This document shows positions 1 to 29,514 of a DNA stretch of 64,000 bases, in pieces. This DNA is from a virus (lineage: Duplodnaviria; Caudoviricetes): the IMG/VR virus record IMGVR_UViG_3300028175_000001; one strand, written 5' to 3'. Position numbers and translations under genes: made by a program. Position 1 is the stretch's first letter. Every line of letters begins with the position of its first letter. The notes under the pieces were generated by a model. That model was given only the letters and a program-made list of their open reading frames with translations, had not been told where the DNA came from and searched no databases.

Positions 1-1
1 A

Positions 2-646: not shown

Positions 647-655
647 GACTTAGCC

Positions 656-1371: not shown

Positions 1372-1377
1372 TTAACA

Positions 1378-1626
1378 TTAGTCCGAATGTGCTATTTTTG
1401 TCGCTTGACCCGTGAAGGTTATGCTATAAGCGGCATCTTTATTAACTTTATGTATTCCTACAGGAAGTTTAATTGTTCCTTTAGACTCCCATGCCGCACC
1501 ATTTAATCCAAGACCCTGTACTTCTACAACTCCAGCAGTTTCTATGTTACACGCAACCGAAGTCGCTGAACCTATTGTATTATTTGCTGGATCTGTTACT
1601 AAAGTTCCAAGTATTTTATAAGCCAT
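1378..1626 (-). CDS. Hypothetical protein (head module)
   Basis: 82-aa ORF tightly packed between neighbours (3- and 6-bp gaps). Confidence 0.6.
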   Translation of the reverse strand: MAYKILGTLVTDPANNTIGSATSVACNIETAGVVEVQGLGLNGAAWESKGTIKLPVGIHKVNKDAAYSITFTGQATKIAHSD

Positions 1627-1629
1627 TAA

Positions 1630-2208
1630 TTACTCTCCTCTGCTTCTAGAAAAAGAAACCATGTTCCAAAAATCTTTCTTACTTTCAAATAGTTTTTTAG
1701 AAAACTCTTCTTTATTTTTTTCATTTAATCTTTTATATGTTTCGTATAAAATTTTTGCATCATCAGGATCAACAATTACTTGAATATCATCTTTTAAACT
1801 TATTTTATGAGATCTTTGTTCTTTATAAATTTGTTTAAGCAATGGAATTAAATCATTAATATGATGAACATCTTCAATCATATCTGCATCATCATATTCA
1901 TATTCTTCATATGGATTATCTTCTGAACCATGTTCCATTTCATAATCAAGATAATATTTTACAGAACTTAAATTAGAACATGCTTTTGAAATTTTATCTT
2001 GTACCCATGTTTCTAATTCAACTTGATCATCAAGCATTTCAAAAAGGTCCTTACTGTATTTATGCACTTTATATAAACTTTGTTTAGCCAGTCTTCCTTC
2101 AAAATCATCATATTTCATTTTCATATGAGGAAATTCATGAGAAATGTTTACAGAATGTTCTTTTATTTCTTTTTTAGCTACTGATGATAAATCTTTAAAT
2201 GTTTTCAT
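1630..2208 (-). CDS. Prohead-associated hypothetical protein
   Basis: EGRLAKQSL...LETWVQDKISKA motif of the kind seen in T4-like head-region proteins; AAGGGG RBS; late promoter 34 nt upstream. Confidence 0.55.
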   Translation of the reverse strand: MKTFKDLSSVAKKEIKEHSVNISHEFPHMKMKYDDFEGRLAKQSLYKVHKYSKDLFEMLDDQVELETWVQDKISKACSNLSSVKYYLDYEMEHGSEDNPYEEYEYDDADMIEDVHHINDLIPLLKQIYKEQRSHKISLKDDIQVIVDPDDAKILYETYKRLNEKNKEEFSKKLFESKKDFWNMVSFSRSRGE

Positions 2209-2242
2209 AACCCCTTGGCATTAAATTGTAATATCTAATTTA

Positions 2243-2250
2243 TATTTATA
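2243..2250 (-). promoter_or_regulatory. T4-type late promoter TATAAATA
   Basis: Exact TATAAATA on the minus strand in the 60-bp intergenic gap upstream of the head-core genes. Confidence 0.75.
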
Positions 2251-2268
2251 TAATCCATGTCCTTTGTG

Positions 2269-2643
2269 TTAAATCATTTTTCCTAAAATCATGCCAAAGT
2301 CATTAGGTAAATGGTAAATTATATTTTTTTCATCTAAAAGTGTTTTAACTTGATCATATATGGATTCATCAAAATCAAAATACCACATATAATCTTCTGC
2401 CCATTGCCCAGCACATGAAACCAAAGAAAGCAATGTTGAATTATTAGCAGTGTGTTTATATTCATTTTTAACATATCCAGATGTAGTAGGATCAAAAGTG
2501 CATATTAACGATGATGTTTGTAAATGTATTTTATGAAAGTCTGTTAAATCTGGAACAGGTTCAATATCACAATCCAATACAAATTCATTATCAACTATTG
2601 TTAATGTTGCTTCTATCTCTATTCCGCTCTCTGTTAAAGGCAT
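2269..2643 (-). CDS. Hypothetical protein
   Basis: ORF-track frame 2269..2655; ATG at 2643 with GGAG upstream and overlap with the previous stop is the more likely start. Confidence 0.6.
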   Translation of the reverse strand: MPLTESGIEIEATLTIVDNEFVLDCDIEPVPDLTDFHKIHLQTSSLICTFDPTTSGYVKNEYKHTANNSTLLSLVSCAGQWAEDYMWYFDFDESIYDQVKTLLDEKNIIYHLPNDFGMILGKMI

Positions 2644-3221
2644 ATTCCGCTCCAAAAATCATCCCAAATAAGTTTATCTGCTGAATCATAAGGTCTAAAC
2701 CATTTATCCCCAACATGCATTTTTTTAACACCATCAAATGGAAGTTCGACCCAAAATAATAAGCGAGGTTTCCATTCTGGATTTAATTTCCAATTTTCCC
2801 AATGAAGAACACTACCTAAAAACGAATCCATTAATAAATCGTCACCTAAATACAAATAATTTATAATTTTACTGCCTAATTTTCTTAACAAAAGAGGATT
2901 TTCTAAAATAACAAAAACAGGTAGTCCATAAGCAGAATCAGGAAGTTCATCTAATGATTGCTCGTTAAATGTATGTATTGTTGCACCTGTTTGTTGTAAA
3001 TCATTCTTAATGGCTCTCATCATCTGAACTGCATGAATTTCATATTGTTCCATATCTAAGTCAGAATTAATATTATTATCAGGAAATAAAGATAAGGATA
3101 CATTCATAAGAAAATGATTAATCGCAATATTAGAACCATTAAGATGTGTAGGATATAAATCTTTTTTGAGAGAATTCGTCCAAGCAGTTTTAAATATTGT
3201 TCTTCGTTCTTCGGGAGTCAT
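2634..3221 (-). CDS. Hypothetical protein; paralog of the hidden frame at 20674..20853
   Basis: 195 aa; residues 111-128 (LLRKLGSKIINYLYLGDD) and 182-193 (DKLIWDDFWSGI) recur in the hidden frame; ATGA overlap with upstream gene. Confidence 0.7.
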   Translation of the reverse strand: MTPEERRTIFKTAWTNSLKKDLYPTHLNGSNIAINHFLMNVSLSLFPDNNINSDLDMEQYEIHAVQMMRAIKNDLQQTGATIHTFNEQSLDELPDSAYGLPVFVILENPLLLRKLGSKIINYLYLGDDLLMDSFLGSVLHWENWKLNPEWKPRLLFWVELPFDGVKKMHVGDKWFRPYDSADKLIWDDFWSGICL

Positions 3222-3718
3222 AATGATATTCCTTTTCGGTCAAAATATTCCGTTATACTATGCATAAAATCATAAATATATGCCCATTTCATATGAAATT
3301 GAGGCCTCCCCTCCTTACTTTGCTGTAAATATTCCATCACGGAACTATTAGGATCAACAGTAGGATATGATGTATATAAATTTTCAAGAAAAGCATCAAA
3401 ATGTTCTTGACCATATTTCGTTGCTAACGAATTATATCCATTTATTATAGTATTTATTCTCGTAGAATACGAATGAATATGATCAGGTCCAGGATGTAAT
3501 TGTTTATCGATATATGTTCGACCTTCTTCTACGGTATCATCTGTATATTGAGTATCATCTATGATAGTCTCTTTTGTAAATCTAATCTTTGATGTTGAAT
3601 GAATTAAACAATGAAGTTCTATTAATAATGTATCATCATCTAGTTCATCTTCCATTTTTAACTTTGACCACAGAGGAGATGTATCTATAGTCGGAAATTC
3701 TTCAGTAATTCTTCCCAT
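3218..3718 (-). CDS. Hypothetical protein
   Basis: 166-aa acidic ORF with AAGGA RBS, coupled to its neighbours. Confidence 0.65.
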   Translation of the reverse strand: MGRITEEFPTIDTSPLWSKLKMEDELDDDTLLIELHCLIHSTSKIRFTKETIIDDTQYTDDTVEEGRTYIDKQLHPGPDHIHSYSTRINTIINGYNSLATKYGQEHFDAFLENLYTSYPTVDPNSSVMEYLQQSKEGRPQFHMKWAYIYDFMHSITEYFDRKGISL

Positions 3719-3727
3719 TTTATATCC

Positions 3728-4621
3728 TTACTTTAATGCTTCCAAAAACCAGTCTATTCGTTTTTCTTCTTCTAAAAGGTATTTAGTAAACGGTTTTGCT
3801 ATTTTACCATATTGGCAACTTTCAATAAAGGGTTTATCTTCTGATAAAATGGTCGGTACAAAGTTTTTCGCACTCGTTTTTATAACGTCCGCCATTCGTT
3901 CATCCATACCTTCTTTATTAAAATATCCTTCATATACTACTGTTGTTTCATTATGTTTTTCGGGAATAAAATAACCAATAAACGTCACAATATCAGAAAT
4001 ATTTGATATAAACAAATTAGGAAATATATAGATATTTTCCCATTTCCATTCATCAATATATTTTTTATATCGTTGAGGTGCTTCTGAAACTATTCGTTCT
4101 AATGAATGTTTTCCATATCTTATTTGTTCTGGAATATGGTCTAATGAAAGAAATGGTTTTAACATATTTTTAGATTCTTTATGTACGTGTTTTACATGCT
4201 GGTATTCTATAACATTTTCAACAAATAATTTCCAATTTGCGTTAATTTTCAACTCGTAATGAAAAAAATGATTATTGGCTTTATAATTATATTTGCGTAA
4301 TAAAGAAATCATTGAAGGATCGTGTTCACCTACAAACAATAAATTTTTATATCTGTAATGAGGATATTGTTTTGCATGAGACTGGTCTTTACCATGATAA
4401 CCACATACAAATTCTTGATTACCATATCCTAGGGGGTGTATTAAGGAAAGTCTATGGTCACAAACATTATCATAAACAGCACCATCTCTAACAACAACTG
4501 GGTGTTTTCCTATAAGAAAACTGTGATAATCATTTTTACGTAATGAACGATACCCAGAATCTACAAACATTCCTTTTAAGAATATTTTTTCTATTTCCTC
4601 ACTAAATCGTTGTTTTTCCAT
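3728..4621 (-). CDS. Rieske [2Fe-2S] non-heme iron oxygenase (ring-hydroxylating alpha-subunit-like)
   Basis: Rieske ligands CDH...CGYH; mononuclear Fe motif NWKLFVENVIEYQHVKHVH; C-terminal EDKPFIESCQ. Confidence 0.85.
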   Translation of the reverse strand: MEKQRFSEEIEKIFLKGMFVDSGYRSLRKNDYHSFLIGKHPVVVRDGAVYDNVCDHRLSLIHPLGYGNQEFVCGYHGKDQSHAKQYPHYRYKNLLFVGEHDPSMISLLRKYNYKANNHFFHYELKINANWKLFVENVIEYQHVKHVHKESKNMLKPFLSLDHIPEQIRYGKHSLERIVSEAPQRYKKYIDEWKWENIYIFPNLFISNISDIVTFIGYFIPEKHNETTVVYEGYFNKEGMDERMADVIKTSAKNFVPTILSEDKPFIESCQYGKIAKPFTKYLLEEEKRIDWFLEALK

Positions 4622-5718
4622 TCTCTTTCAGGGATCATAGGCTTCATAAATTTGTTATAAACCATAGTATCTTCAACACGGGACTGTAAATTAAGAATGT
4701 TTCGTATATCTTTACGTGTTTCTGTAAATTGTGTTTTATAGGGTTCTTGAGAATAATAGTTATAATCTTCAGGAATTAAATGACAATAATTACATGGTGT
4801 ACGGTATGCTACTCGTTCATCTACAGGACCTATTCTATTATGTAAAGTTATAGAATTATCAAAAATACATATATCATTATTTTGCTGATATTTATGGTGA
4901 TAAATATATTCATCTACAAATAATTCTTTGTCTAAATCATCTAAAAACTTAGTTCTCTCTACGGTGCCAGGAGAATAGTGTAGTCCTTTTATTCCTCCAG
5001 GAGATGTAATGACCAGTGGAAGTTCAATCGGTTCAAACGTTTGATTCCACCGAAATAAATCATCTTGATCTTTGTCAATTTCAGGCGCAGTTTCATAATT
5101 CTGATATTTAAAAATGATGGTCATATCATCTAATTCTCTTTTAAAAGAATCTCTTTGCTTCTCGTACCAAGAAGCAGTAGTAGCAAATCCTGTTGAAGTA
5201 CCAACCATTCCTTTTATGCCCATTAAAGCAATTCCTGGATTAAATACAATTGATCCCGGTTCATTAGAGTGCCAAAGCAATTCTCCTTCAGCAAACATTC
5301 CTATGGCCTTTCCGTTTTCTTTTATACCAGATATACGGTGTAGTTGAGATTTCCAAGGAATCTTTTCCCCTATAAATTCATCACCTCCGGCCCCCATCCA
5401 AGCTAAATCTTCTGCATGTTTTCGGTCTTCGTCTTCTATAAGATTACGTTTAAATAGACTATAGAAATTGCTTATTCCCAATTTCTCTTTATATTTTTTT
5501 CTAATCCTATATCCATCTAAAATAAAAGGATCACCCCAAAGAATCATTTTTCGTTCAAATTCATTAGGATGAATATCAACACCTCTAATGATTGTTACTA
5601 AATCAGTAAGATGGTCTTTTCCTAGTTCTATCCAATCATTATCAGACATTTCTGCTAATGATATATCATCTATAAATCGACCATAATCACCGAGTCCGGG
5701 TATTTTACTAGTTTTCAT
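4591..5718 (-). CDS. TauD/TfdA-family Fe(II)/2OG dioxygenase
   Basis: N-terminal IPGLGDYGRFIDDI, LLWHSNE (HxN instead of HxD) and C-terminal DICIFDNSITLHNR typical of TauD. Confidence 0.75.
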   Translation of the reverse strand: MKTSKIPGLGDYGRFIDDISLAEMSDNDWIELGKDHLTDLVTIIRGVDIHPNEFERKMILWGDPFILDGYRIRKKYKEKLGISNFYSLFKRNLIEDEDRKHAEDLAWMGAGGDEFIGEKIPWKSQLHRISGIKENGKAIGMFAEGELLWHSNEPGSIVFNPGIALMGIKGMVGTSTGFATTASWYEKQRDSFKRELDDMTIIFKYQNYETAPEIDKDQDDLFRWNQTFEPIELPLVITSPGGIKGLHYSPGTVERTKFLDDLDKELFVDEYIYHHKYQQNNDICIFDNSITLHNRIGPVDERVAYRTPCNYCHLIPEDYNYYSQEPYKTQFTETRKDIRNILNLQSRVEDTMVYNKFMKPMIPEREWKNNDLVRK

Positions 5719-6515
5719 TGCTTACTCCGTTCATATTTTTCATTTCCCATATCTTCTGCAATGTCTTTTATTATATCAAATACTAATTTCTGAAGATCAA
5801 AATTATACGTAAAGATAAATTCATAATAATTTTCACCCGGTAATGGTGCAGTTCGTAATAATGCTGGTTTCCAAAATCCAGTATTAAAACTTAACGTAAT
5901 TCTATTGTTCGTTTGTAGAAAATTAAAATTTTCATTATCAACCAATTCATTTTTTTCCCAAACTTTATTAATAGCAGTTCTTAAAAGAGCAGTTAAATAA
6001 TTTAATCCATCAATTGAACACGCTGTCCATGTTACATATGCTCTACTCTGTGATGATTCATTAATTAAATGTCCCTCACATGATCCAAAAGTTCTAATAC
6101 CATCAAACACGTTGAAAACATCAACTAACGGCTTAATGCCCGTTTCTATTTCAAAAGTATCATTGGTCACACCTCCTCCCATAGAACCACTAGACAAATC
6201 TTCAGTTGGCAAAAGGTCTAATTCATTAAATAAGGCTATATCTTCAGTAGAATTTATATCTTTCCAATTATAACCAATTTCATATTTTTTAAGAAATTCA
6301 CTAAAAACACTTATTAATAGTTCATATTTTAGATTAGCATGTCCACAAATTAATACATATTCTTTTTTTCTTTTCGCTCGTTCAATGTCTTGATCATTAC
6401 CGCTAATCTTATCTACTAATGAAATTAATAACTTATTTAACAGGTCCACTCGAATTTTCGAATCAGGATCATGTACAATAATATAATTCTGTCTCCACGT
6501 ATTAATTGTAATCAT
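5715..6515 (-). CDS. TYW3-like 'SCEGH' protein, paralog A
   Basis: ETGIKPLVDVFNVFDGIRTFGSCEGH resembles the TYW3 N-terminal D-x2-I-x6-N...T-x2-SC-x-G motif; aligns along its length with 16353..17174. CDS is solid, function is weak. Confidence 0.45.
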   Translation of the reverse strand: MITINTWRQNYIIVHDPDSKIRVDLLNKLLISLVDKISGNDQDIERAKRKKEYVLICGHANLKYELLISVFSEFLKKYEIGYNWKDINSTEDIALFNELDLLPTEDLSSGSMGGGVTNDTFEIETGIKPLVDVFNVFDGIRTFGSCEGHLINESSQSRAYVTWTACSIDGLNYLTALLRTAINKVWEKNELVDNENFNFLQTNNRITLSFNTGFWKPALLRTAPLPGENYYEFIFTYNFDLQKLVFDIIKDIAEDMGNEKYERSKQ

Positions 6516-7300
6516 ATTTTTCTCAAAAATTTCTCTATAATAAAAACATTTAAAAAATCTGTCTCATACCATTTATCTGACATTTTCGTATTATATGCAC
6601 TAGGATCATAATGGTGATTATTATGTAACATTGATCCAGTAAAACCAGACAACCATTGCCCGAGTGTATTGTTTGTACTTTTATCTGTAGTTTCAAAATT
6701 ACGATAGCCCCACATGTGTCCTATAGTATTAACTAAACCTCCAGTATGAAGTGTTATAATACTAGGTAATGCAAAAAAGAAAACAGGTATTCTCCAATCA
6801 ATTAATGCAGTTAAAACAAGTGGTGGAACAACTATAGTCAAATAATTTCTATGTAATAATTTTAAGAACGGATCTTTCACAAGATCAGCATACAGTCTAT
6901 GTTCATATATTTCCTGTCTCCAATTAGTAAACCATACATCAAAAGGACTTAAATAATGTGGCGAATGAGGATCTTCAGGTGTGTCAGATTTCTCATGATG
7001 ATATCTATGAAATGCAACCCACGGAAATTGAGTTCCTTGGTATATAAAGATTCCGCATATAGCCATAAATTTATGGGCCCAAGATTTTGCTTTAAAGCTT
7101 CTATGCGCAAAATATCTATGGGCGCCTATTTCTCCTCCTATATGTCGAAACAATATAACTCCTACAAGAGTTAACCACAGCCAGTACCATGAACTATATA
7201 ACAATCCTATTACTGATGCAATATGAAATAAAATCATGAAGCTAAAATATGCTTGCCATGAATTATTATACTTTGAGATAATTTTTAATAAACTTCCCAC
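6512..7300 (-). CDS. Membrane fatty-acyl desaturase (Delta9-like)
   Basis: Three His boxes HRYFAH, HRYHH, HNNHH; hydrophobic segments; GYRNFET motif; GTG start. Confidence 0.9.
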   Translation of the reverse strand: MGSLLKIISKYNNSWQAYFSFMILFHIASVIGLLYSSWYWLWLTLVGVILFRHIGGEIGAHRYFAHRSFKAKSWAHKFMAICGIFIYQGTQFPWVAFHRYHHEKSDTPEDPHSPHYLSPFDVWFTNWRQEIYEHRLYADLVKDPFLKLLHRNYLTIVVPPLVLTALIDWRIPVFFFALPSIITLHTGGLVNTIGHMWGYRNFETTDKSTNNTLGQWLSGFTGSMLHNNHHYDPSAYNTKMSDKWYETDFLNVFIIEKFLRKI

Positions 7301-8003
7301 AATAGTCCCTTTCTTTTCCTGTTACATTTTCATCCCAATTACTAGGATCTTGATGATGATTATTATGCAATCCACTTCCTAATGTTAAATCATTAACCCA
7401 CCAATTGTTTGTACTTTTATCTGTAGTTTCAAAATTACGATAACCCCATTTATGACATACAATATTAACTAATGCCGCGCCATGAATAATTCCTACACTG
7501 GGTATACTAATTAAAAACACAGGCAATCTCCAATCTATTAATGACAATAGTAAAAAAGTTATACCTATGATATAAAAATAATATTTATGGCTTTTTTTGT
7601 ATATCGGATCTTTTAATAAATCAGCATAGTGTTTTATGGGCAAATTAACTTTCCGCCACAATGTTAACCAAACCCTCCACCAAGAAATAATATGAGGTGA
7701 ATGGGGATCTAATTCTTCATCAGAATTCATATGGTGGGCCCTATGCGCTATAGCCCAGGAGATAGGGGAACCATAACAATTAAATATTCCTAATGTTGAT
7801 AACAAAAAATGTCTTATTGGACCTGTCTCAAAAGAGTTATGCGCAACATACCTATGATTACCTATTTCACTTCCAAATTTACCAAACAATAAAAATCCAA
7901 TAGGAATCCATAGATACCACGGCAATGGAGAATATATAATTCCTATTACTGCTAAAATATGATTCAATATCAAAAGTATTCTTACACCTATTTGATGTGT
8001 CAT
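7266..8003 (-). CDS. Membrane fatty-acyl desaturase (Delta9-like)
   Basis: His boxes HRYVAH, HRAHH, HNNHH; start moved to ATG 8003, which forms an ATGA overlap with the upstream stop. Confidence 0.9.
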   Translation of the reverse strand: MTHQIGVRILLILNHILAVIGIIYSPLPWYLWIPIGFLLFGKFGSEIGNHRYVAHNSFETGPIRHFLLSTLGIFNCYGSPISWAIAHRAHHMNSDEELDPHSPHIISWWRVWLTLWRKVNLPIKHYADLLKDPIYKKSHKYYFYIIGITFLLLSLIDWRLPVFLISIPSVGIIHGAALVNIVCHKWGYRNFETTDKSTNNWWVNDLTLGSGLHNNHHQDPSNWDENVTGKERDYCGKFIKNYLKV

Positions 8004-8272
8004 TTTGATAGAAAATCCGCACTCTGTAAAGTTTGTGCTAATTGCTGTTGCCACAAAGTTACATCTCCTGTAACTTTTCCGCGACTTGTTAAATTAAACT
8101 GTTCGGATAAATTATTCAAACAGTCCAATATTATTTCTTCTTTCTTATTTTCTGGTTGACCCGCAGTTGCAATAAGAGCAATCCATTCCTGACATCCACC
8201 CGGGTATGAACCATAAATCGTATTTTCAAGTGATGTCTTTAATATTTCACTTACTTTTTCTATATTGCCCAT
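8000..8272 (-). CDS. Hypothetical protein
   Basis: ATG 8272 lies 1 nt after the upstream stop and the TGA overlaps the next ATG, consistent with translational coupling. Confidence 0.6.
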   Translation of the reverse strand: MGNIEKVSEILKTSLENTIYGSYPGGCQEWIALIATAGQPENKKEEIILDCLNNLSEQFNLTSRGKVTGDVTLWQQQLAQTLQSADFLSK

Positions 8273-8273
8273 G

Positions 8274-9050
8274 TTATTCTCCAAAATCATGATAAGTTTG
8301 TTTTTCTGTTATTGATTCTTTCACTCTGATATCGTTCCATTGCTGTTTTGTCATTCCATGTACTTGAGATTCGTGATCTATGTCCATAAACATGATCAAA
8401 CTATGTCGTTCTTTTTTTGTTGAATTTGATACCCTATGGGGAGTAGATTTTAATTTATTTTGGGTCCACCACTGCATAAAATCACCACAATTAACTATTA
8501 TAAAATCATCACCAGGATGTTTTATCAAAGTCCATTCGCCATCAATGCATACTTCATATTCTTCTACAGGATCACATACATGCACTAATGTCAATGTTCC
8601 GAAATCACAATGACTGCCTAATCGATTATTTCCTATTTGATCTTTATAATATTTTACAAATATCAAATCATTACTTGATTTCTCGTGTTTCAGTGTTATT
8701 GAATTAGGCGGCAATTTCATATATTCTTCAATAGCATATAATATATCACACCCAACTTTTATATATTGGCTCCTTATAGTATTTACGCACTCCCAATCAT
8801 CAGACATATTTTTTAGAACAACTCTTTCGTTTGCTTCTCCGGGAAACCTTTTTGAACTTGATCGACCTTCTTCGTACATAGGTAATGTCTTTAAATCCGC
8901 CGCTTTTAATTTTTCACGTAATTGTTCTAATGATCCTTTCATATCAATAAAAGGATTTACTACTAATAAAAAACCAGTATTTTTAAAACTATCTACAATT
9001 GATTTAGAATTCCAATCAGACGAATTAAATACTATTGAACTTGGAGCCAT
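8274..9050 (-). CDS. IPNS/DIOX-type Fe(II)/2OG oxygenase
   Basis: LGSHCDFGTLTL (HxD), VNCGDFMQWWT...STPHRV (distal His) and RHS (RxS 2OG-binding). Confidence 0.9.
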   Translation of the reverse strand: MAPSSIVFNSSDWNSKSIVDSFKNTGFLLVVNPFIDMKGSLEQLREKLKAADLKTLPMYEEGRSSSKRFPGEANERVVLKNMSDDWECVNTIRSQYIKVGCDILYAIEEYMKLPPNSITLKHEKSSNDLIFVKYYKDQIGNNRLGSHCDFGTLTLVHVCDPVEEYEVCIDGEWTLIKHPGDDFIIVNCGDFMQWWTQNKLKSTPHRVSNSTKKERHSLIMFMDIDHESQVHGMTKQQWNDIRVKESITEKQTYHDFGE

Positions 9051-9781
9051 TTTATAAACCTTGCGCCGGGATCGATTTCACCAAAACGATATTTATTTTG
9101 GTCATTATGATGATTCAAGTGCCACCCCTCTCCACCTGTTATCAATGCTATCAATAAATTATTAGAAGGTTCACCATGTCTATGACAATAAGCATTTATA
9201 AGACCGTATCCGTGATTTGCAAATACAATAGGAAGACAATAACCAAATACTAACAATAAAGGATCTATTAAAAAAAATATTAATATGATTAATGCATGTA
9301 ATTTAAGATAATTATCATAAAACCATTTTAAACTAGAATTTTTACTAAGACTTAACCAATCTTTAAGGTCTTCTCTTTCTGTTGGTATATACCTAAATCC
9401 TGCTTGAAACCAACCACTTGTATATACCCACCAAAAACCCTTATGTTTCGGACTATGTGGATCTTTCTCTGTATCGACGTATTTATGATGATCCCTGTGA
9501 ACACCTATCCATACTAATGCGGGTCCAGGATTTCCGAATAATCCAATAATTTGACTATAAATTTCATACCACTTGCCGATCTTAAAACTATTATGAGTCC
9601 AATATCTATGGTAGCCACTTGTGCCAGCAGTTATATGAACAAATTGCCACCATATAAAACTATACAATAACATCCACCATTCGCCATAAATTATTGCGGG
9701 TATAATAACTAAATGACAAAATACATTAATAGACCAAATACTATACCTGTTTAATGTAGCATTTTTTTCTAATGAGCCCAT
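9032..9781 (-). CDS. Membrane fatty-acyl desaturase (Delta9-like)
   Basis: His boxes HRYWTH, HRDHH, HLNHH; GEGWH motif; ATG at 9781 preferred over TTG at 9790. Confidence 0.9.
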   Translation of the reverse strand: MGSLEKNATLNRYSIWSINVFCHLVIIPAIIYGEWWMLLYSFIWWQFVHITAGTSGYHRYWTHNSFKIGKWYEIYSQIIGLFGNPGPALVWIGVHRDHHKYVDTEKDPHSPKHKGFWWVYTSGWFQAGFRYIPTEREDLKDWLSLSKNSSLKWFYDNYLKLHALIILIFFLIDPLLLVFGYCLPIVFANHGYGLINAYCHRHGEPSNNLLIALITGGEGWHLNHHNDQNKYRFGEIDPGARFIKWLQVQ

Positions 9782-10143
9782 ATATAACAAACTCCTACTA
9801 CATATTCATCTGTATCAGACAATGATATTCTTACATCTTGTCTTGGGCCTTTGTATTCTTTCGATACTGAAGCATGTACAACAGGAAATCGAACCCCCCT
9901 GCTTGTCAAATGCATGTAACTAACATCTAATCTTAAATAAGGTGAAGCTATTGCTTTAGAATATGCTTCCTTAACACACCAACATTTAGTTAAATATCTA
10001 GCAGTCATAGGACTGGGCGCATTTCTTTTTTCAATATCTGTTAATATTTTATTAACAAATTTGTCTCCCCATTTATCATATATCTTTTGAATAGGTTCGA
10101 TTGTTTGTAAATCAATACCTATTAAATTTTCTCTAGCAGACAT
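9769..10143 (-). CDS. acpS: Holo-ACP synthase (AcpS-type 4'-phosphopantetheinyl transferase)
   Basis: IGID, WCVKEAYSKA and ISLS motifs, ~124 aa; next to PKS and ACP. Confidence 0.85.
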   Translation of the reverse strand: MSARENLIGIDLQTIEPIQKIYDKWGDKFVNKILTDIEKRNAPSPMTARYLTKCWCVKEAYSKAIASPYLRLDVSYMHLTSRGVRFPVVHASVSKEYKGPRQDVRISLSDTDEYVVGVCYIWAH

Positions 10144-11150
10144 AAATCAACTTGAAATCCTGGTCCATAAGAAATCATAACCAGTTTTCCTTCTTTCATA
10201 AAATCATTTTGTAAGGTTTTTATTACACTTGTGGCAGACATATTACCAAATAATCTAAACATCTCAAAAGAAGAATCTAATGCACCGTCAGGTAAATTTA
10301 ATCCTTCTGCAGTATTTTGCAAAACAACTTTTCCACCAGGATGACATATCCAATGATCAATATCATGACCTTTAATAAATTCTTCTACTTTTGGTAATAA
10401 CGCATCAGCGGCTTTTGGTAGTTCCTGCAATTTAGTAGATTCTACATTATATAATAATCCTGCACTTGTTCCTTCAAGAGTAATAAAATCTTCTGTATCA
10501 GGTAAAATATGAGATGCATGTTTAAGTACTTTCCAACCTCCGTGTTCATAATCATCACCAGCCATTAAAATAGCACTTACACCATCACCGAAAATAGTAA
10601 TACCAAATACTGTAGTAAGAGAACGATCTTCAGGATTTAAATTCATTGAAACTAAATCATTAGTGAGACAAATTACTACTTTAGTTGGGTTTGCTTTTAA
10701 AAATTCATCTGCAATTTGTATCACATGCGTACCACCATTACACGCTAAACCAAACATGGGTATTTTAATTACAGAATCAGGAAAATCAAAATGACTAAGC
10801 AATTTATGTGGTACAGTAGGAATTCCTACACCTGTCATTGTTGTAGATGTTATCATACACACATCTTCGGGAACAAGAAGGTCCAATTCCAATACTGCTT
10901 CTAATGATAACTTATGTACTACTTCATTAAATGTTTTATTTTTTTGCGTAAAAGTTTGAGACTGTTCCCGCATTGTCTCAATAGGATAACAAGTATGTCT
11001 ATATTCAACTCCTGTCAATGGCATATATCTGTCAAATACTCTACCCGAATAACCTTTTTCTTGCCACCATTCTTTCAGCTTTACTTTGAAGTCATCATTA
11101 TGTAATCGATTTTCAGGATGTTTAGTTACTATTTGTAAAATTTTACTCAT
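10122..11150 (-). CDS. Type III polyketide synthase (chalcone/stilbene synthase family)
   Basis: Catalytic triad motifs GLACNGG (Cys), HPGG (His), FGNMS (Asn); IFGDG and C-terminal YGPG; 342 aa. Confidence 0.92.
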   Translation of the reverse strand: MSKILQIVTKHPENRLHNDDFKVKLKEWWQEKGYSGRVFDRYMPLTGVEYRHTCYPIETMREQSQTFTQKNKTFNEVVHKLSLEAVLELDLLVPEDVCMITSTTMTGVGIPTVPHKLLSHFDFPDSVIKIPMFGLACNGGTHVIQIADEFLKANPTKVVICLTNDLVSMNLNPEDRSLTTVFGITIFGDGVSAILMAGDDYEHGGWKVLKHASHILPDTEDFITLEGTSAGLLYNVESTKLQELPKAADALLPKVEEFIKGHDIDHWICHPGGKVVLQNTAEGLNLPDGALDSSFEMFRLFGNMSATSVIKTLQNDFMKEGKLVMISYGPGFQVDLCLLEKI

Positions 11151-11752
11151 TCTGCCTCTATTGTCATTTCTCTAATACGACCACTAAAATTAATCATATG
11201 ATCTATACATTCTACACATTGTTCAGGAGAAAGCATATTTGGTTCTAGCTTATGATCATATACTCGATTTACGAGAGTTGCCAATCTTGTTGTTCTTGGA
11301 GTTTCCACCCAACCAGGTCTTAGTAGTGAAATTTTACATCCGTTATGTTTTGCAGTCTTTTCATAACATTCTAGATTAATTTTATCAAGTGATATTTTAC
11401 CTGCTGTATAACGACTATGGCCTATAGGATAATCATCTGTATCTTTTTCAGATGCGATAGAACTAACAGAGATTATATGTTTATTTGGATCATCTTTCCA
11501 TAAATGAAAAACGAATAAAAGTGCTTGTGTTTGAGCCCACCATTTGTAGTCATTATATGCATTGTTTATGAATATATCACCTTTAGGATCAAACCATTCT
11601 TTAATATGTTCTATATCATGTTTATTATATCGCCTACTATGACCTTCTACCTCAATTAAGTCTTTGTATTTTGCGAGATAATTTCCATCATATTTTTCAC
11701 TTAGTGCTTTTCCTATACCGGAAGTCACACCAGTTATAATCATTTTACGCAT
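11147..11752 (-). CDS. Short-chain dehydrogenase/reductase
   Basis: TGVTSGIG Rossmann motif, FINNA, catalytic YTAGK (YxxxK), LRPGWVETP. Confidence 0.88.
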   Translation of the reverse strand: MRKMIITGVTSGIGKALSEKYDGNYLAKYKDLIEVEGHSRRYNKHDIEHIKEWFDPKGDIFINNAYNDYKWWAQTQALLFVFHLWKDDPNKHIISVSSIASEKDTDDYPIGHSRYTAGKISLDKINLECYEKTAKHNGCKISLLRPGWVETPRTTRLATLVNRVYDHKLEPNMLSPEQCVECIDHMINFSGRIREMTIEAE

Positions 11753-11996
11753 TTGCTTTTCGCTCTACCATATTATATAAATCGTTTATTGTTGTTGCTT
11801 TTTGAAACTCTTCTGCATCTAAGGCAATATTAAAAGTATCTTCAATAATTATCATTGTTTCTAAAATATGAATAGAATCAATTTCTAAATCTAAAGCAAT
11901 TTTACTATCGGACTTTATCTCTGGAAAATCAATACCCGCGGCCGCTTCTTCAAACGCGGATTTACATTTTTCTTCAATTTCTTGTCGTGTGTACAT
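11745..11996 (-). CDS. Acyl carrier protein
   Basis: 83-aa acidic protein with DLEIDSIHILE phosphopantetheine-attachment motif and EDTFNI...TINDL. Confidence 0.88.
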   Translation of the reverse strand: MYTRQEIEEKCKSAFEEAAAGIDFPEIKSDSKIALDLEIDSIHILETMIIIEDTFNIALDAEEFQKATTINDLYNMVERKANA

Positions 11997-12756
11997 CGTA
12001 TAAATCCTCTTCAGTTATTTGTTCAATGGGTTCAGCAATATAATTAAGGTCACTATGTTTTCCTGTTAATCCGTAAGCATCTGAATGATGACATAATTTA
12101 TAAGACCCCTCTTTATATCCTGCTATGCTAATTAATAAATTAAACCGAGCTGTTAAACCGGCATTAATTACAGTATGATTAATGCAACTATCATCTTGAT
12201 AAGAACTCCCATCTGCTGGTAAATAATATGATTGATCGTCAATAACAAAACGACATCCTGCATTAACTTCAAGGGGTATATGTATATTTTCAAAACTATC
12301 TTGATGCCAATTTATAGTAGTTAAAGGGTTTAACATCGTTATTCTAACTCGGTCTATCTCATAATATATAGACAACTTTTTATAAATGTTATGAAATTCT
12401 GTATCTAAATAATCTTCATTAAAAATAGTATAATCTTTACGTGTTTCAAATCTTTTTAATTTTCTATTAAAATTTGTCCCATCATGTATTATGCGCTTTA
12501 ATATATTGTACTTATAACCAGAAGAAGATGAAAAAACTGATGGTCTTTGAGGACAAAAACTTCTTACAGAATCATATAGTCTTTGTTCTGGTAAACAGTC
12601 TTTTGAATGTAAAAGTCCCAATACATAAGCATCATTAAAGTCGTCTCTTGTATTGAGATCCCATGGAGCGAATAAAGATTTTAGCGGCTGAAGTTCTTTT
12701 TGTAAACGATCTATATCAAATTCCCAAGGTAATTTTTTTACATAAATTGGTCTCAT
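11974..12756 (-). CDS. Aspartyl/asparaginyl beta-hydroxylase-like Fe/2OG oxygenase
   Basis: RVRITMLNPLTTINWHQD (HxD), IHIPL, HTVINAG and terminal RFNLLI pattern typical of the AspH/LpxO-like family. Confidence 0.75.
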   Translation of the reverse strand: MRPIYVKKLPWEFDIDRLQKELQPLKSLFAPWDLNTRDDFNDAYVLGLLHSKDCLPEQRLYDSVRSFCPQRPSVFSSSSGYKYNILKRIIHDGTNFNRKLKRFETRKDYTIFNEDYLDTEFHNIYKKLSIYYEIDRVRITMLNPLTTINWHQDSFENIHIPLEVNAGCRFVIDDQSYYLPADGSSYQDDSCINHTVINAGLTARFNLLISIAGYKEGSYKLCHHSDAYGLTGKHSDLNYIAEPIEQITEEDLYDVHTTRN

Positions 12757-13490
12757 TGTTGATGTATATCAAATTCAAGCATTTCACAAGCAGTTTCTAA
12801 TTCAGTAATAGTATCCAAATCTGTTTCCTGGAGCTGACTAAATGTTTCTCTAATATATGCCAGAAGATCCGTTTGTTGTACAGAAGTTAAATTTGCTAAA
12901 ACATATTTATTTTCTTCATCCATAGCATCATATCTTATCGCAGAATCATAATGATTTTTATATATGATCATCATTTTTAAAAAATAGGAATATTTTGAAT
13001 ACGATAAACTTAATAATTTATCCTGAAGTGATTTAGTATCAGGATCAAGCCATGAACCGGTTTCTAATTCATCTGCTGACGGACCCCTTGCGGAACCATC
13101 ATCATGTGTTCCGGGATTATCTGATATCCATGATAACCAATTATCACGCATAAATGATGTACAATATTTTGTACTAGCATTTAATCTTTCATCAGTAAAC
13201 CATGATATATCTTGTTGCGATAAAAAAGTTCTACTGAAAACGGGTTCTGCATCTTCGAAGATATTAGACGGGTTTAAAATGCATCCTTGATACTTAAACA
13301 TATAAGTTCTATCTAACCATTGATCTTCTGTAATACCACATTCCAAATACACATCTTTATTGGTTATTAAAATATCAACTATATCATTAAACCTAGCAAT
13401 ATCATCACTCTCCATTAGAACCATAATTTGTCGGTCAGCCTTTAATTGTTTCCAGCTAGGATTACTTTTAAATACTTCGGCTTCAGCCAT
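12753..13490 (-). CDS. Hypothetical protein
   Basis: 245-aa acidic ORF abutting both neighbours. Confidence 0.7.
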   Translation of the reverse strand: MAEAEVFKSNPSWKQLKADRQIMVLMESDDIARFNDIVDILITNKDVYLECGITEDQWLDRTYMFKYQGCILNPSNIFEDAEPVFSRTFLSQQDISWFTDERLNASTKYCTSFMRDNWLSWISDNPGTHDDGSARGPSADELETGSWLDPDTKSLQDKLLSLSYSKYSYFLKMMIIYKNHYDSAIRYDAMDEENKYVLANLTSVQQTDLLAYIRETFSQLQETDLDTITELETACEMLEFDIHQQ

Positions 13491-13700
13491 TTAAATGCTT
13501 TCCATTCTACGTGTATATCTATCTTTTAGCTCATTAAAATTAGATGTCAAATTAGCAGAAATAAATATAGACTCTGTTGAGTCTAAAAAGTTCAATATTT
13601 TTTGATATCCGTTTTTTGTGAAATCTTCACTTTCTATTTTATTTATTTTAAATAAAATAGTTTCAAACGATAGGTTTTTTAAGTTTACAATTTTACTCAT
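13491..13700 (-). CDS. Small hypothetical protein
   Basis: 69 aa; ATGA overlap with upstream stop; stop abuts next ATG. Confidence 0.55.
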   Translation of the reverse strand: MSKIVNLKNLSFETILFKINKIESEDFTKNGYQKILNFLDSTESIFISANLTSNFNELKDRYTRRMESI

Positions 13701-14611
13701 TTTAGTATACCATCTTCTCCAGGCATTACTACAGGTAGACTTGGATCAAGCGCATATTCATTTGGGAGATTTACAGTATCGTCACAATATGGAAGTTTTC
13801 CTTCAGTTGATAATATATTCCCGTATTCATCAGCTTTTTCATTTTTTTCTCCAGTAATTTCTTCTATAGGATCGTCAATGGGTCTATTGTTTTGGCCGGC
13901 AAGTCGAACATCAACTATGCCCTGACCAGGAGTGTCTGCACCCTGTACTGCTTGAGGATGTTTTGCGGGAGGATATGGCCCTCCCGCATGTAAATCCAAA
14001 GAACCAACTCCATCTTGACCATGCGCATTTCCTTGAGGTTTAAATATTTGCCCTCCAACACCTTCATTAACAAAAGCATCAACATCAATAATCGCATCAT
14101 CAAGAGTTTTTTTACTAAGGTCATCACGAGCAGTGTCTAGATATTCCATATAGTCTTTAGTGTTGCCTATAGCCTTAATGAGATGTTCTTTACATTGATT
14201 ATCACAATATTTATGAAAGTCAGAAGCAAACTGGCAATTACAAATCATTCCTTTTACATATTCTGCCTGTTCACCTGCTTCTGTTGTATAAGTAGGAGAG
14301 TCGTGTTCAACCATTCCTTCCAATTCTCTCAGAGTGTATTCAACAAGCTCATCAACCTTTTTGTCTTGATTTTCATCTACTTGAATATTTTGATGAGCAG
14401 TTGGCAATCCACCGGCCGGCTGACCTGTATCGGCCGTTAAAGTTTGACTATTCATATCCGTCAACATCTGTTGCTTTTGCAACGCACTTAATCCCAAATC
14501 TAATGACTTTAGTAATGTCATACCTATTGGCTGTGTTATTTCATCATCCAATAGTGGTGATAATGCGGCAATAGCGGCATTTGTGCATTCAATAACTTTA
14601 TTTTCACTCAT
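13697..14611 (-). CDS. Hypothetical protein with central Cys cluster
   Basis: 304 aa with ICNCQFASDFHKYCDNQCKEH and a low-complexity Gly/Pro/Asp-rich C-terminal half; 8-bp overlap with the rSAM gene. Confidence 0.7.
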   Translation of the reverse strand: MSENKVIECTNAAIAALSPLLDDEITQPIGMTLLKSLDLGLSALQKQQMLTDMNSQTLTADTGQPAGGLPTAHQNIQVDENQDKKVDELVEYTLRELEGMVEHDSPTYTTEAGEQAEYVKGMICNCQFASDFHKYCDNQCKEHLIKAIGNTKDYMEYLDTARDDLSKKTLDDAIIDVDAFVNEGVGGQIFKPQGNAHGQDGVGSLDLHAGGPYPPAKHPQAVQGADTPGQGIVDVRLAGQNNRPIDDPIEEITGEKNEKADEYGNILSTEGKLPYCDDTVNLPNEYALDPSLPVVMPGEDGILK

Positions 14612-15956
14612 GATTTATCTCTCTGGGGAAATTTCTTTTTTGGGTTTCAAGCATTTCTTCTGCTATGTGATCTAAACCAGAACCCTGGCCAGAGGTATCT
14701 ATTATTCCCAATCTATCAATAGCAGTTGTCGGATGACCGGTTCTAGGCAATATTCTATTTTTTTCTTCTTTATCTCCTGCATCAGGAAGATGTTTCATTC
14801 CTTTTCCTACTCTCACTAATCCATTTTGTATTGATGCCAATCCTTGTTCTGTATAATAAAATCTATGATCTTTACGTTCTCCACAAGAATTACACATATC
14901 ACAAAACATGTGGCATACAGGAGAAAATAATTTATTTTTTATCCATTGTTTCCGTAAATAATCTATCTGTTCTTTTAATAACCAATTAATTTTTGCTTTA
15001 TCTTCGGGACTATCTTTACCCGCTAAACTTTCATCTATAGATGTAACAACTCTATCCGGTCCATATGTCTTGACTATACGCAAAATATCCTTAGCAAAAC
15101 ATTGTACATTTGATCTGTGAATAGTATACCTGGCCCTCCATTTAATTTGGTCTTGGGGTGGCATATTGGAATTATAATCTGAAATATTTTTAAATGCTTT
15201 TAATACATCTGGAGTAGAATCTTTACCAGAATAATATACCCTATCTAAATTTCCTGCACCATCAAAACTAATATCAAAAGAAACCCGTTGTTTAATTCCT
15301 GGATTAGATTCCAAAAAAGTAATAACACTATTAAAAAATTTTGGCTTACTTAAAAGTATACCATTAGTTGTTATATTGAAATGTAAATTGTGCTTCTGAG
15401 AATATGCATAATTCATAAGATATTCACAATTTTTCCATTCTAACATCGGTTCACCACCAAAAATACAAAATAAAGTTTGTTCATCTGGTCTATCGGTTTT
15501 ATTAATATCATCTACAAGTTTTTTCAACAATGGTGGTTCGGGTAAATGTTTTGGTCGATTTTCTAAATGTTCATAGCAATAAGAACAATTTAAATTACAT
15601 TGACTTGTCATATAAAATAAATGTATACCTCCACCGTGTGCAACTCTTGTATTTTCGTTTTCACCATGAGTAAAATGTCTATCCATAATTTCATTAACAT
15701 TGGCTTCTGCTAAATCAAGTCTTCCTTCTTTTAGTGCTTTAACACGGTCATAATGTTCATCTTTTGATACGCTTTCTACATGTTGTTTTACTACTTGATT
15801 CAATTCACGATCAGTTAGAGTTAATAATTTTTTAACATCATGTTTTTCATATTTACATACACCTTCTCCTGTTTTCAATCCTCGTTCATAATCAATAACA
15901 CCATCAAGAGATCCCATGGTGGGTAAAACTTTTTTAGAGCGTGTTAGTGTTTTCAC
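14604..15956 (-). CDS. Radical SAM enzyme (short auxiliary Cys cluster)
   Basis: CNLNCSYC, FGGEPML, ITTNG, ISFDG; C-terminal CHMFCDMCNSC; ~110-aa N-terminal extension; GTG start overlapping the upstream TAG. Confidence 0.9.
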   Translation of the reverse strand: MKTLTRSKKVLPTMGSLDGVIDYERGLKTGEGVCKYEKHDVKKLLTLTDRELNQVVKQHVESVSKDEHYDRVKALKEGRLDLAEANVNEIMDRHFTHGENENTRVAHGGGIHLFYMTSQCNLNCSYCYEHLENRPKHLPEPPLLKKLVDDINKTDRPDEQTLFCIFGGEPMLEWKNCEYLMNYAYSQKHNLHFNITTNGILLSKPKFFNSVITFLESNPGIKQRVSFDISFDGAGNLDRVYYSGKDSTPDVLKAFKNISDYNSNMPPQDQIKWRARYTIHRSNVQCFAKDILRIVKTYGPDRVVTSIDESLAGKDSPEDKAKINWLLKEQIDYLRKQWIKNKLFSPVCHMFCDMCNSCGERKDHRFYYTEQGLASIQNGLVRVGKGMKHLPDAGDKEEKNRILPRTGHPTTAIDRLGIIDTSGQGSGLDHIAEEMLETQKRNFPREINHE

Positions 15957-16366
15957 TATTTTCCCCTTACAACTGGTCTTTCGTCCAGTTTTCTGCGGAT
16001 TTGTTCTTCTGGATTTTGTTTTAGAATATATGCTATGTTTTTCATAAGTCTAGGAAAATCAATGTTATAATTAAATAAATGTGACTTTATTCTTGTACCA
16101 TCTGATTCAGGATTCCAAGAATCATAAAGTAAATTTTTATCTCTCGCTTGTTTTTTTGATGGGGTGTCTTCTAGCTGTACTTGATTAATAAGAGTTTGAA
16201 TATCTCCGTCTTTTGCGGCCCTTGCCGATTTTTCATATCGCTCTACTGATTTTTTATTTTTATTATTTATTACAGCCTCTTGTCCTGAAATCGCAGGATG
16301 CCATCCTTCTTCACGATCTAGATCATTTAGTTCTTCTGGAGTTCCGTGTATTTTATTTTTTTCCAT
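15956..16366 (-). CDS. Hypothetical protein
   Basis: Charged 136-aa ORF (ATG 16366) overlapping both neighbours. Confidence 0.6.
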   Translation of the reverse strand: MEKNKIHGTPEELNDLDREEGWHPAISGQEAVINNKNKKSVERYEKSARAAKDGDIQTLINQVQLEDTPSKKQARDKNLLYDSWNPESDGTRIKSHLFNYNIDFPRLMKNIAYILKQNPEEQIRRKLDERPVVRGK

Positions 16367-17174
16367 GTAACAATTTTCCAAGATATTTTATCTGTTCAAA
16401 TACTCTTTCTTGTTCAATAGCCATATATTTGTAAGCAAATTCAAATTGAGTATCAGAATTGCCCCCATCAAACGTTAGCATTAATCCATTTTTTTCAAAC
16501 CACGCTTTTGTTGACCAATCTTCATGGTTAAATAATTTAAAATAGTTCCACATAATTTTAATATTTTTTTCTATGGAAGACGAAAAAATATTTAAATTTT
16601 TCATTGAATCTACAGTAAAAACTATATACGCACAACATTGCCAGTCTGTATCATATGCGGGATCGTTTTGATCGTAATGGCCCTCACACGATTCTATAAC
16701 ATCAACACCATCAAATATATTAATTCCACTAACCAACGGTTCTATTCCACATTCAACAATATCTTTTTGATGATCTTTAATTTCTATGTGGCCTATCTGT
16801 AAAGCACCAAGTCTATTAAGATTTTCATAAACTTCTGTTGGTAACCCAGACATATGATCATACACTAATCCAAATTTAGATAAAAAGTTATTCAATATTA
16901 ATCTAAAAGATTTTGATGATTTCTCTGTATTTTTAATAATGATAAAATCACCTATCATATTACCACAATTTTCAATACCTGTCGTTTTTTCAATTACATG
17001 ATTTAATACCGTTAAATCAATAAGATGATCAATATCTTTTATGATAAACAAATTAGACCTAAATTGATATACTGTTACATCCTTACGATCTATTAAATAT
17101 CCAGGCAAATATTTTGTGGGACCGCCAGTGTCCGCAGTTCTGGTGTCTACTACTGGTTCATCAAATATTCCCAT
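16353..17174 (-). CDS. TYW3-like 'SCEGH' protein, paralog B
   Basis: ECGIEPLVSGINIFDGVDVIESCEGH; N- and C-terminal segments align with 5715..6515. Function uncertain. Confidence 0.45.
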   Translation of the reverse strand: MGIFDEPVVDTRTADTGGPTKYLPGYLIDRKDVTVYQFRSNLFIIKDIDHLIDLTVLNHVIEKTTGIENCGNMIGDFIIIKNTEKSSKSFRLILNNFLSKFGLVYDHMSGLPTEVYENLNRLGALQIGHIEIKDHQKDIVECGIEPLVSGINIFDGVDVIESCEGHYDQNDPAYDTDWQCCAYIVFTVDSMKNLNIFSSSIEKNIKIMWNYFKLFNHEDWSTKAWFEKNGLMLTFDGGNSDTQFEFAYKYMAIEQERVFEQIKYLGKLLHGKK

Positions 17175-17187
17175 AAAACCTTTCTTC

Positions 17188-20059: not shown

Positions 20060-20062
20060 TTT

Positions 20063-29506: not shown

Positions 29507-29514
29507 TATTTATA
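29507..29514 (-). promoter_or_regulatory. T4-type late promoter TATAAATA for gp18
   Basis: Exact motif, intergenic, upstream of the GGGGAG RBS. Confidence 0.75.

Follow-up and report, generated by a model that had tools for sequence, protein, structure and literature searches.

Type III polyketide synthases (PKSs) with a Cys-His-Asn triad stand beside tailoring enzymes in Pks11/Pks18, Azotobacter ArsABCD, Streptomyces SrsABC, and Bacillus BpsA/BpsB, and the products of the long-chain alkylpyrone and alkylresorcinol systems are membrane-active phenolic lipids. The metabolic genes known from phages mostly act singly, each enhancing or rerouting a host pathway through one enzyme. The cyanophage desaturases vFAD-I and vFAD-II (Roitman et al. 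2018, PMC5776448) are single DesC-like enzymes whose substrates are C16 chains in membrane lipids. Here, we describe a gene block on a 64,000-nucleotide stretch of DNA, called the window throughout, from IMG/VR virus record IMGVR_UViG_3300028175_000001 (Duplodnaviria; Caudoviricetes), in which a type III PKS is likewise encoded beside tailoring enzymes. Judged on sequence, the source DNA is part of an uncultured marine T4-like myophage; the window encodes baseplate proteins gp5 and gp6, large terminase, tail sheath, and portal, the last at most 54% identical to Synechococcus phage portals. We see an even chance that the block is a self-contained phage pathway for an unsaturated, oxygenated alkyl-pyrone or alkyl-resorcinol lipid. 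An initial annotation of this DNA had proposed a type III PKS pathway at 6512-12756 with its own acyl carrier protein (ACP), phosphopantetheinyl transferase (AcpS), short-chain dehydrogenase/reductase (SDR), and three desaturases. Each of these elements is indeed present there, and the unit is larger than proposed, reaching down to at least 3728 and continuing upstream to 20674. All genes of interest, and thus all coordinates given below for the block, are on the minus strand.

The PKS (10122-11150; 342 amino acids [aa]) matches the Chal_sti_synt_N and Chal_sti_synt_C models at 36.2 and 33.7 bits against a cutoff of 27. Its Cys137, His270, and Asn303 align to Cys138, His277, and Asn310 of Mycobacterium tuberculosis Pks11, with the Cys column fixed by the C138S mutant entry 4jat, which bears out the intact triad noted in the initial annotation. 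Among phage homologs, C137 and N303 are invariant and H270 is kept in 12 of 13; the C-terminal loop reads YGPGF. A PDB search returned 114 matches, and all of those shown are type III PKSs; the best is Pks11 (1.4e-29), the M. tuberculosis alkylpyrone synthase, a long-chain lipid enzyme. CylI, which uses a carrier-bound substrate, is also among the matches. The nearest cellular relatives (26 to 30% identity) are annotated as alkylresorcinol or alkylpyrone synthases, and the NCBIfam fabH model matches at 6e-10, far below its cutoff. A DarB/FabH-type dialkylresorcinol enzyme was also considered and is ruled out by the PDB and NCBIfam scores. These comparisons place the protein with the long-chain alkylpyrone and alkylresorcinol synthases, as a true and intact type III enzyme.

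Directly upstream of the PKS are the SDR and ACP genes, and directly downstream is the gene for AcpS. The ACP (11745-11996; 83 aa) matches PF00550 at 30.1 bits (cutoff, 20.8) and is acidic, with 19 D/E residues versus 8 K/R. The serine motif pointed out earlier holds up: D40-S41, which contains the attachment residue Ser41, is invariant in seven orthologs. NCBIfam ACP models match at an E value of 1e-10, below their equivalog cutoffs, and dN/dS is 0.06 against the related locus L001. AcpS, a 4'-phosphopantetheinyl transferase (9769-10143; 124 aa), scores 41.8 bits with PF01648 (cutoff, 25) and falls below the NCBIfam AcpS equivalog cutoffs; its Mg-binding Asp11, GIDL motif, and K58-E59-A60 (KEA) are invariant, in agreement with the AcpS motifs already reported. 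Carrier and activating enzyme of the phage thus both have their motifs intact. The SDR (11147-11752; 201 aa) is a short classical enzyme with conserved TGxxxGxG, NNAY, Ser97/98, and Y115xxxK119, together with a conserved basic SRR after strand 2, a feature typical of NADPH-binding SDRs. It belongs to a family of mini-SDRs of 166 to 210 aa with 453 representatives. An alignment was gathered from these 453 relatives and the fold was predicted from 89 sequences (pLDDT 92; a 7-sequence fold with a pLDDT of 51 was discarded). Nearest to the predicted model are the actinorhodin, monensin, and granaticin polyketide ketoreductases and FabG/CylG, with TM scores of 0.64 to 0.73. A FabG equivalog match was not reached (best FabG model, E of 0.004 and 16.6 bits versus a cutoff of 296), and Pfam adh_short scores 26.3 against a cutoff of 26.6; agreement of the modeled protein with FabG is limited to fold and catalytic residues. 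From sequence and model together, the SDR is probably an NADPH-dependent ketoreductase.

The three desaturases represent three orthogroups: A (9032-9790; 252 aa; PF00487, 37.4 bits; HRYWTH/HRDHH/HLNHH), B (7266-8054; 262 aa; PF00487, 49.8 bits; HRYVAH/HRAHH/HNNHH), and C (6512-7300; 262 aa; HRYFAH/HRYHH/HNNHH). The third has no Pfam match at an E value of ≤0.01 and was recognized by its paralogs and by the NCBIfam DesA-family model (1.6e-23), which all three match below its cutoff. Each contains HxxxxH, HxxHH, and HxxHH boxes, two long hydrophobic hairpin regions, and an NxxxH pair of the kind known from the stearoyl-CoA desaturase structure. The complete His boxes seen in the initial annotation are kept across 28 phage paralogs, in which H61, H66, H98, H101, H102, H195, H229, and H230 are invariant, N191 is nearly so, and box 3 begins with His or Gln; the three enzymes of the window retain every metal ligand. 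CrtW/CrtR-type carotenoid enzymes were considered for these short proteins and excluded on the delta-9 character of box 1 (HRYxxHRSF) and of the GEGWH-type box 3. The genes had been described as three in tandem; in fact, a PF03171 oxygenase (8274-9050) and a 96-aa open reading frame (8000-8290) separate the first from the other two.

Eleven related loci, with PKSs 67 to 92% identical to that of the window, were collected from IMG/VR, ENA/Tara, and Logan assemblies. Every one encodes ACP, SDR, PKS, AcpS, and at least two desaturases, so that the desaturases are co-inherited with the ACP/PKS core in 11/11 loci; a PF03171 oxygenase is found in all but L001. The number of desaturases ranges from two to seven (three in the window, L001, L003, L007, and L008/L009, five in L140/L141, and seven in L002). 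In L002, the seven paralogs form an unbroken row (12151-17685), several with Gln in place of the first His of box 3. Orthogroups A (n = 6), B (n = 7), and C (n = 13) have support values of 100, 100, and 98 and are mutually 28 to 45% identical; C occurs in every PKS locus and is the one expanded in relatives. At ≥50% identity, A to C were found only together with the PKS. Upstream of the core in the window lies a module of radical S-adenosylmethionine (SAM) enzymes, and relatives of one of these, rSAM2 (46 to 52% identical), were used for comparison: cassette genes lie within 10 kb of rSAM2 in 0 of 27 IMG/VR contigs. The module is thus far more common than the cassette, which is a separable add-on, and it is to the ACP/PKS core and not to the radical-SAM enzymes that the desaturases are linked. 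Profile scans of IMG/VR with the PKS and with rSAM3 recovered the same two contigs only. All nine genes tested between the window and L001 have dN/dS values of 0.01 to 0.31, by which measure the tested cassette genes are under purifying selection.

These patterns bear on a reading in which two independent functions lie side by side: ACP, AcpS, SDR, and PKS would make a saturated phenolic or pyrone lipid, and the desaturases, with an LpxO-type hydroxylase, would remodel host glycerolipids or lipid A. Single DesC-like desaturases are proven membrane-lipid auxiliary metabolic genes in cyanophages (PMC5776448), short desaturases of the same radiation occur without ACP and PKS in other marine phages such as Mosig, and the desaturase tree presented below does not join the phage enzymes to ACP-dependent ones. 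On the other side, fluidity control should need one or two desaturases, not two to seven long-diverged paralogs per genome (28 to 45% identity); desaturase genes are placed between ACP and SDR in L140 (ACP, desaturase, SDR, PKS, cupin, AcpS, 2-oxoglutarate [2OG] oxygenase, four desaturases) and between PKS and AcpS in L008 (PKS, desaturase, FabZ, AcpS); and orthogroups A to C, tied to the PKS as described, are absent from the 27 contigs with the radical-SAM enzymes alone. We therefore consider a split into two functions unlikely.

The chemistry of the carrier is indicated by FabZ, which is encoded inside the cassettes of L003 (11037-11465) and L008/L009 (L008:8400-8831) and is not present in the window. 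The cassette proteins pass NCBI FabZ equivalog models (169 bits versus a cutoff of 113, and 160 versus 155), and 3-hydroxyacyl-ACP is, to our knowledge, the sole substrate type of FabZ; no other feature of the sequences speaks as strongly for ACP-bound acyl chains as the currency of the pathway. A condensing enzyme, a KR-type SDR, FabZ in two lineages, ACP, and AcpS also make up most of an elongation cycle, and the block might accordingly be a carrier-protein fatty acid module, in which the PKS primes or elongates on ACP, the SDR reduces, FabZ dehydrates, and an unusual unsaturated or hydroxylated acyl chain is passed to a lipid, to lipopolysaccharide, or to a phage protein in place of a free pyrone or resorcinol. 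Such a module would fit with the lack of a recognizable thioesterase or release enzyme, and with the position of the cassette, which always follows a Cys-rich virion-type protein with radical-SAM enzymes in the late structural run. We nevertheless regard it as rather improbable: the condensing enzyme is a type III PKS and not FabH (Pks11 at 1e-29 versus the FabH model at 6e-10; GPG loop), type III PKSs normally cyclize and release their products, no acyltransferase for passing the chain on was found, and FabZ is absent from the window and most loci.

The phage FabZ is 66 to 73% identical to FabZ of twelve SAR324 genomes, with no other taxon above 52%, and in a separate protein search its best matches name only SAR324 or "Deltaproteobacteria." Because SAR324-like sequences were part of the alignment behind the FabZ search patterns, SAR324 is treated as a host lead and not as a result; on this sequence kinship, SAR324 may be both the donor of FabZ and a possible host of this uncultured phage group. 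A phage desaturase query found no match in five SAR324 genomes, which is not proof of absence. A search for psbA (Photo_RC) in two related IMG/VR records found none; these records are 18 to 33% complete and are uninformative on the host.

The initial annotation had favored sequential desaturation of an ACP-bound chain, with a polyunsaturated or acetylenic alkyl-resorcinol or pyrone as possible product. In the acetylenic version, some of the desaturases would be acetylenases that form a conjugated polyyne or a terminal alkyne on ACP before PKS extension, as in the cay, pgn, and jamABC cassettes. There, two or three delta-9-type membrane desaturases act on a carrier-bound chain and adjoin a dedicated ACP, much as three or more desaturase-family genes adjoin the phage ACP. 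Desaturases of polyyne clusters belong to the same broad delta-9-type family and match the phage enzyme at about 32% identity (E of 1e-18 to 1e-20); the phage proteins are about 70 residues shorter. A tree was built with references from fatty acyl-AMP ligase (FAAL)-ACP-desaturase cassettes, namely, those on a Streptomyces goshikiensis plasmid (L015), two Burkholderia gladioli plasmids (L012 and L013), Polaromonas (L014), and a Ralstonia plasmid, and with stand-alone cyanobacterial and Acinetobacter desaturases. The cellular references form one clade (SH-aLRT 99; one long-branch reference row not counted) that excludes every phage desaturase, including all 24 from PKS-bearing phages; group A is the nearer neighbor of this clade, and B and C lie further out. 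The phage enzymes are thus outside both the polyyne-cassette and the cyanobacterial references, and they do not group with Gloeothece or Nostoc in this tree, which contains no vFAD sequences. Since ACP-linked and stand-alone enzymes are intermixed inside the reference clade, the tree cannot tell the substrate carrier, and as a sequence comparison it supports neither a polyyne-type nor a DesC-type affiliation. The predicted complex of ACP and desaturase C scored 0.09 against a mark of 0.32 and was used neither for nor against binding.

In gene content, the L015 cassette encodes a thioesterase, an acyl-AMP ligase, two desaturases, an ACP, a third desaturase, a hydrolase, a rubredoxin, and a P450. 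All of L012 to L015 have an acyl-AMP ligase, together with a thioesterase or hydrolase and often a rubredoxin and P450; the phage cassette has none of these and has a type III PKS instead. With no FAAL, thioesterase, or rubredoxin, with the phage desaturases outside the reference clade, and with no sequence signature that distinguishes acetylenases from desaturases, a polyyne or alkyne seems to us very improbable. What is retained of the initial proposal, a dedicated pathway as opposed to bulk membrane remodeling, is the carrier-centered unit, upheld by co-inheritance in 11/11 loci, interleaved genes, and FabZ; its acetylenic part is not.

The order of steps, substrates, and product that we propose for an alkyl-pyrone or alkyl-resorcinol pathway are as follows. 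AcpS would convert ACP to holo-ACP, on which host FabD and fatty acid synthase II (FAS II) would build an acyl chain, perhaps assisted by the SDR and, in some relatives, by the phage FabZ. The two to seven diverged di-iron desaturase-family enzymes and an LpxO-type cupin would then modify the chain, through double bonds or other oxidations, while it is carrier bound or just after; the desaturase family also includes hydroxylases, conjugases, and acetylenases. The PKS would load the chain on Cys137, add two or three malonyl units, cyclize the product, and thereby release it, and release by the PKS itself would explain the absence of a thioesterase. Finally, the PF03171, TauD-like, and Rieske oxygenases would tailor the product, for which membrane alteration, redox or antioxidant chemistry, exclusion or deterrence, and a role as virion component are candidate functions.

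Several points weigh against this pathway. The scheme presumes that the PKS prefers acyl-ACP over acyl-CoA and that the desaturases act on ACP-bound chains, and in the desaturase tree the phage enzymes are not related to any of the known ACP-dependent ones. Other marine phages without ACP or PKS (L010, L011, L021, and L142) have short desaturases from the same radiation, single or paired, so this ACP was probably not the substrate carrier of the ancestral phage enzymes. Profile searches of the genes from 3728 to 20674 recognized neither a ligase nor a FabD-type acyltransferase nor a thioesterase, so loading would have to rely on host enzymes or on genes elsewhere. One metagenomic PKS homolog has Gln at the position of the catalytic His, and seven conserved genes of the run are without assigned function. 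Six metatranscriptome libraries contain block DNA, with contigs that cover nearly all of 3001-21000; these contigs are weak evidence of transcription, as DNA carry-over is possible.

The phages with short desaturases outside PKS loci were missed in the initial annotation, as was the link to the neighboring module. L011, a 91-kb phage contig, encodes three radical-SAM enzymes, an AAA ATPase, two short desaturases, and a GNAT protein at 1-10109, with no ACP or PKS. L021 is Pelagibacter phage Mosig (MT647606; 54765-65307), an isolated pelagimyophage in which a 216-aa desaturase lies directly beside Asp_Arg_Hydrox and TauD-like genes; its island also encodes a second Asp_Arg_Hydrox protein, aminotransferases, an FMN reductase, a peroxiredoxin, a methylase, and a GNAT protein and has several enzyme families in common with the island studied here.

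Four oxygenases of the block had also gone unnoticed, including the cupin with which the 6512-12756 interval opens. This Asp/Arg beta-hydroxylase-type protein (11974-12756; 260 aa; PF05118, 32.2 bits versus a cutoff of 22.6) belongs to a family that also holds the lipid acyl hydroxylases LpxO and OlsC; it has a weak PDB match to the 182-aa "beta-hydroxylase" 7v4f and is a variable cassette member, a shorter homolog being located inside the cassette in L003 and L140. The second oxygenase (8274-9050; 258 aa) is a 2OG-Fe(II) enzyme of the IPNS/ACC-oxidase/plant-DOXC type (PF03171, 57.6 bits) with an H147-C-D motif and with TraH, thymine dioxygenase, and tri-ketone dioxygenase as PDB relatives. 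Its orthologs (51 to 54% identity) are in L002, L003, L004, and L007, and PF03171 genes are also present in L008/L009 and L140/L141; no ortholog was detected in L001, which has only distant homologs (24 to 26%). The TauD-family oxygenase-like protein (4591-5718; 375 aa; PF02668, 35.6 bits) and the Rieske nonheme iron oxygenase alpha subunit (3728-4621; 297 aa; PF00848, 59.6 bits) are further variable members. The TauD-like gene lies between ACP and SDR in L002, and the protein has no PDB relative by sequence. In it, WHSNE and HNR are invariant and kept in three orthologs, where the family usually has W-H-x-D; from the alignment, Asn seems to take the place of the usual carboxylate ligand, and Glu adjoins it. 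The Rieske protein contains C54xH...C73xxH and NWKxxxENxxExxHxxxxH, and its orthologs are at the same cassette end in L001, L004, and L007.

Other genes of the block have no recognized family. The 96-aa protein at 8000-8290 has no family match and no CxxC pairs, and its orthologs in L002 and L003 are 51% identical. The 266-aa protein at 5715-6515 has no HMM match and 66% identical orthologs in the same two loci; it is a paralog of the 273-aa protein at 16353-17174, with which it has a G-x-CEGH motif in common, one copy at each end of the island. Language-model feature scores of 0.83 to 0.88, below the mark of 0.9, offer as a lead that it possibly has a TYW3/MTHFR_C-like SAM-binding fold. Three conserved genes at 12753-14611 (304, 69, and 245 aa), without family matches, have orthologs in all PKS loci, join the cassette to the radical-SAM module, and were not detected in the 27 radical-SAM-only contigs; an Atlas feature look-up for the 245-aa protein gave sub-threshold rows only. 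The radical-SAM/Cys-heptad module (14604-20674) is continuous with the cassette. It includes a 203-aa protein that ends in about 12 heptads of the Cys-x-Cys-Asn-Cys-Asn-Phe type; after it come three radical-SAM/SPASM enzymes that match the family of PapB-type ranthipeptide maturases best.

The whole run comprises 23 consecutive genes from 20674 down to 3728. The overlap of neighboring genes described in the initial annotation is confirmed, with overlaps of 4 to 55 nt among the cassette genes; across the 23 genes, junctions are overlaps of 1 to 65 nt or gaps of ≤13 nt. The strict T4 late-promoter motif TATAAATA occurs on the minus strand at 29507, just before the sheath gene, and next at 2243, just upstream of gene 1630-2208; none was found on that strand across the roughly 27 kb in between, which places the island within an extended run of late virion genes. 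Scans for sigma-70-type promoters and for terminators gave chance-level results only. The island is flanked by the portal gene on one side and the prohead protease gene on the other, and in relatives, the run extends into prohead protease gp21, scaffold protein, and major capsid protein gp23. Given this position, the cassette probably acts late in infection; sheath, portal, fiber, radical-SAM module, and PKS cassette may form one late transcription unit. Directly after the portal gene is a 1,298-aa protein (20854-24750) with a local GC of 0.49, versus about 0.32, and many spurious open reading frames in other frames, as expected of a repetitive fiber gene. The packing of the 23 genes into a single run with no consensus late promoter inside also bears on a further idea, that cassette and upstream module share a target. 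The polyketide lipid, its head group oxidized by the Rieske, TauD-like, and 2OG enzymes to a quinone-type or otherwise reactive form, would be attached to or cross-link the Cys-heptad fiber protein that the three radical-SAM enzymes modify, to give a tanned or lipidated virion appendage. We give this very little credence; it is speculative, since phages with the radical-SAM module but no cassette also exist.

A Megablast search of isolated phages with 3700-16400 gave no match. The exact DNA was detected in 14 marine metagenome runs, which belong to at least 10 studies; the phage is lytic and abundant in the ocean. A lytic ocean phage would then carry a near-autonomous secondary-metabolite pathway with its carrier, activator, PKS, and reductase, up to seven desaturases, and four oxygenase kinds. 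If the product is made, infection would turn cells into chemical factories whose lipid neither phage nor host produces by itself, which, if true, would bear on marine lipid pools, virocell membrane physiology, and natural-product discovery. The compact proteins (83-aa ACP, 124-aa AcpS, 201-aa KR, and desaturases of about 255 aa) are attractive for enzymology, and through the FabZ kinship this uncultured phage group has, in SAR324, a host lead that can be tested for the first time.

Searches of open-access papers and preprints found no lytic phage described with a type III PKS/ACP/desaturase pathway, nor was one found there in viral biosynthetic gene cluster surveys or for SAR324 myophages. The only type III PKS of an isolated phage among 50,697 records is that of the temperate actinophage ZL12 of Streptomyces (GQ919031), at 24% identity over 68% of the protein. 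Like vFAD-I and vFAD-II, the desaturases described here are delta-9-family membrane enzymes of marine T4-like phages; the vFADs are single and near host DesC, whereas here two to seven paralogs are tied to an ACP/PKS core. The plant sporopollenin route combines the type III PKSs PKSA/B, a TKPR (SDR) reductase, and fatty acid oxygenases, with CoA-bound substrates, P450s, and a polymeric product; its likeness to the phage scheme is one of logic only, namely, an oxygenated acyl starter, a type III PKS, and then SDR reduction. The closest cellular arrangement is found in SAR324, in which all five genomes searched (5/5) have a type III PKS of their own. One operon (L108:9610-14302; genome G003, contig 4) encodes a FAD oxidoreductase, a FabF-like ketosynthase (KS), an ACP, a type III PKS, and an ICMT-family methyltransferase, and we take it to resemble the Bacillus BpsA/BpsB pair. 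With its ACP gene immediately upstream of the type III PKS gene, it sets a cellular precedent for this arrangement, and it does so in the probable donor lineage of the FabZ of related phages. Its PKS and ACP are 28% and 23% identical to the phage proteins, which argues against recent transfer, and it has the KS and a BpsB-like methyltransferase and lacks desaturases, AcpS, and SDR. In comparison with the alkylpyrone and alkylresorcinol systems, no methyltransferase was recognized in the phage cassette; unlike them, it has its own ACP and AcpS, a mini-SDR, two to seven desaturases, and four kinds of iron oxygenase, and it is carried on the DNA of a T4-like phage. Every part comes from a known family; what is new is how they are combined and where they occur.

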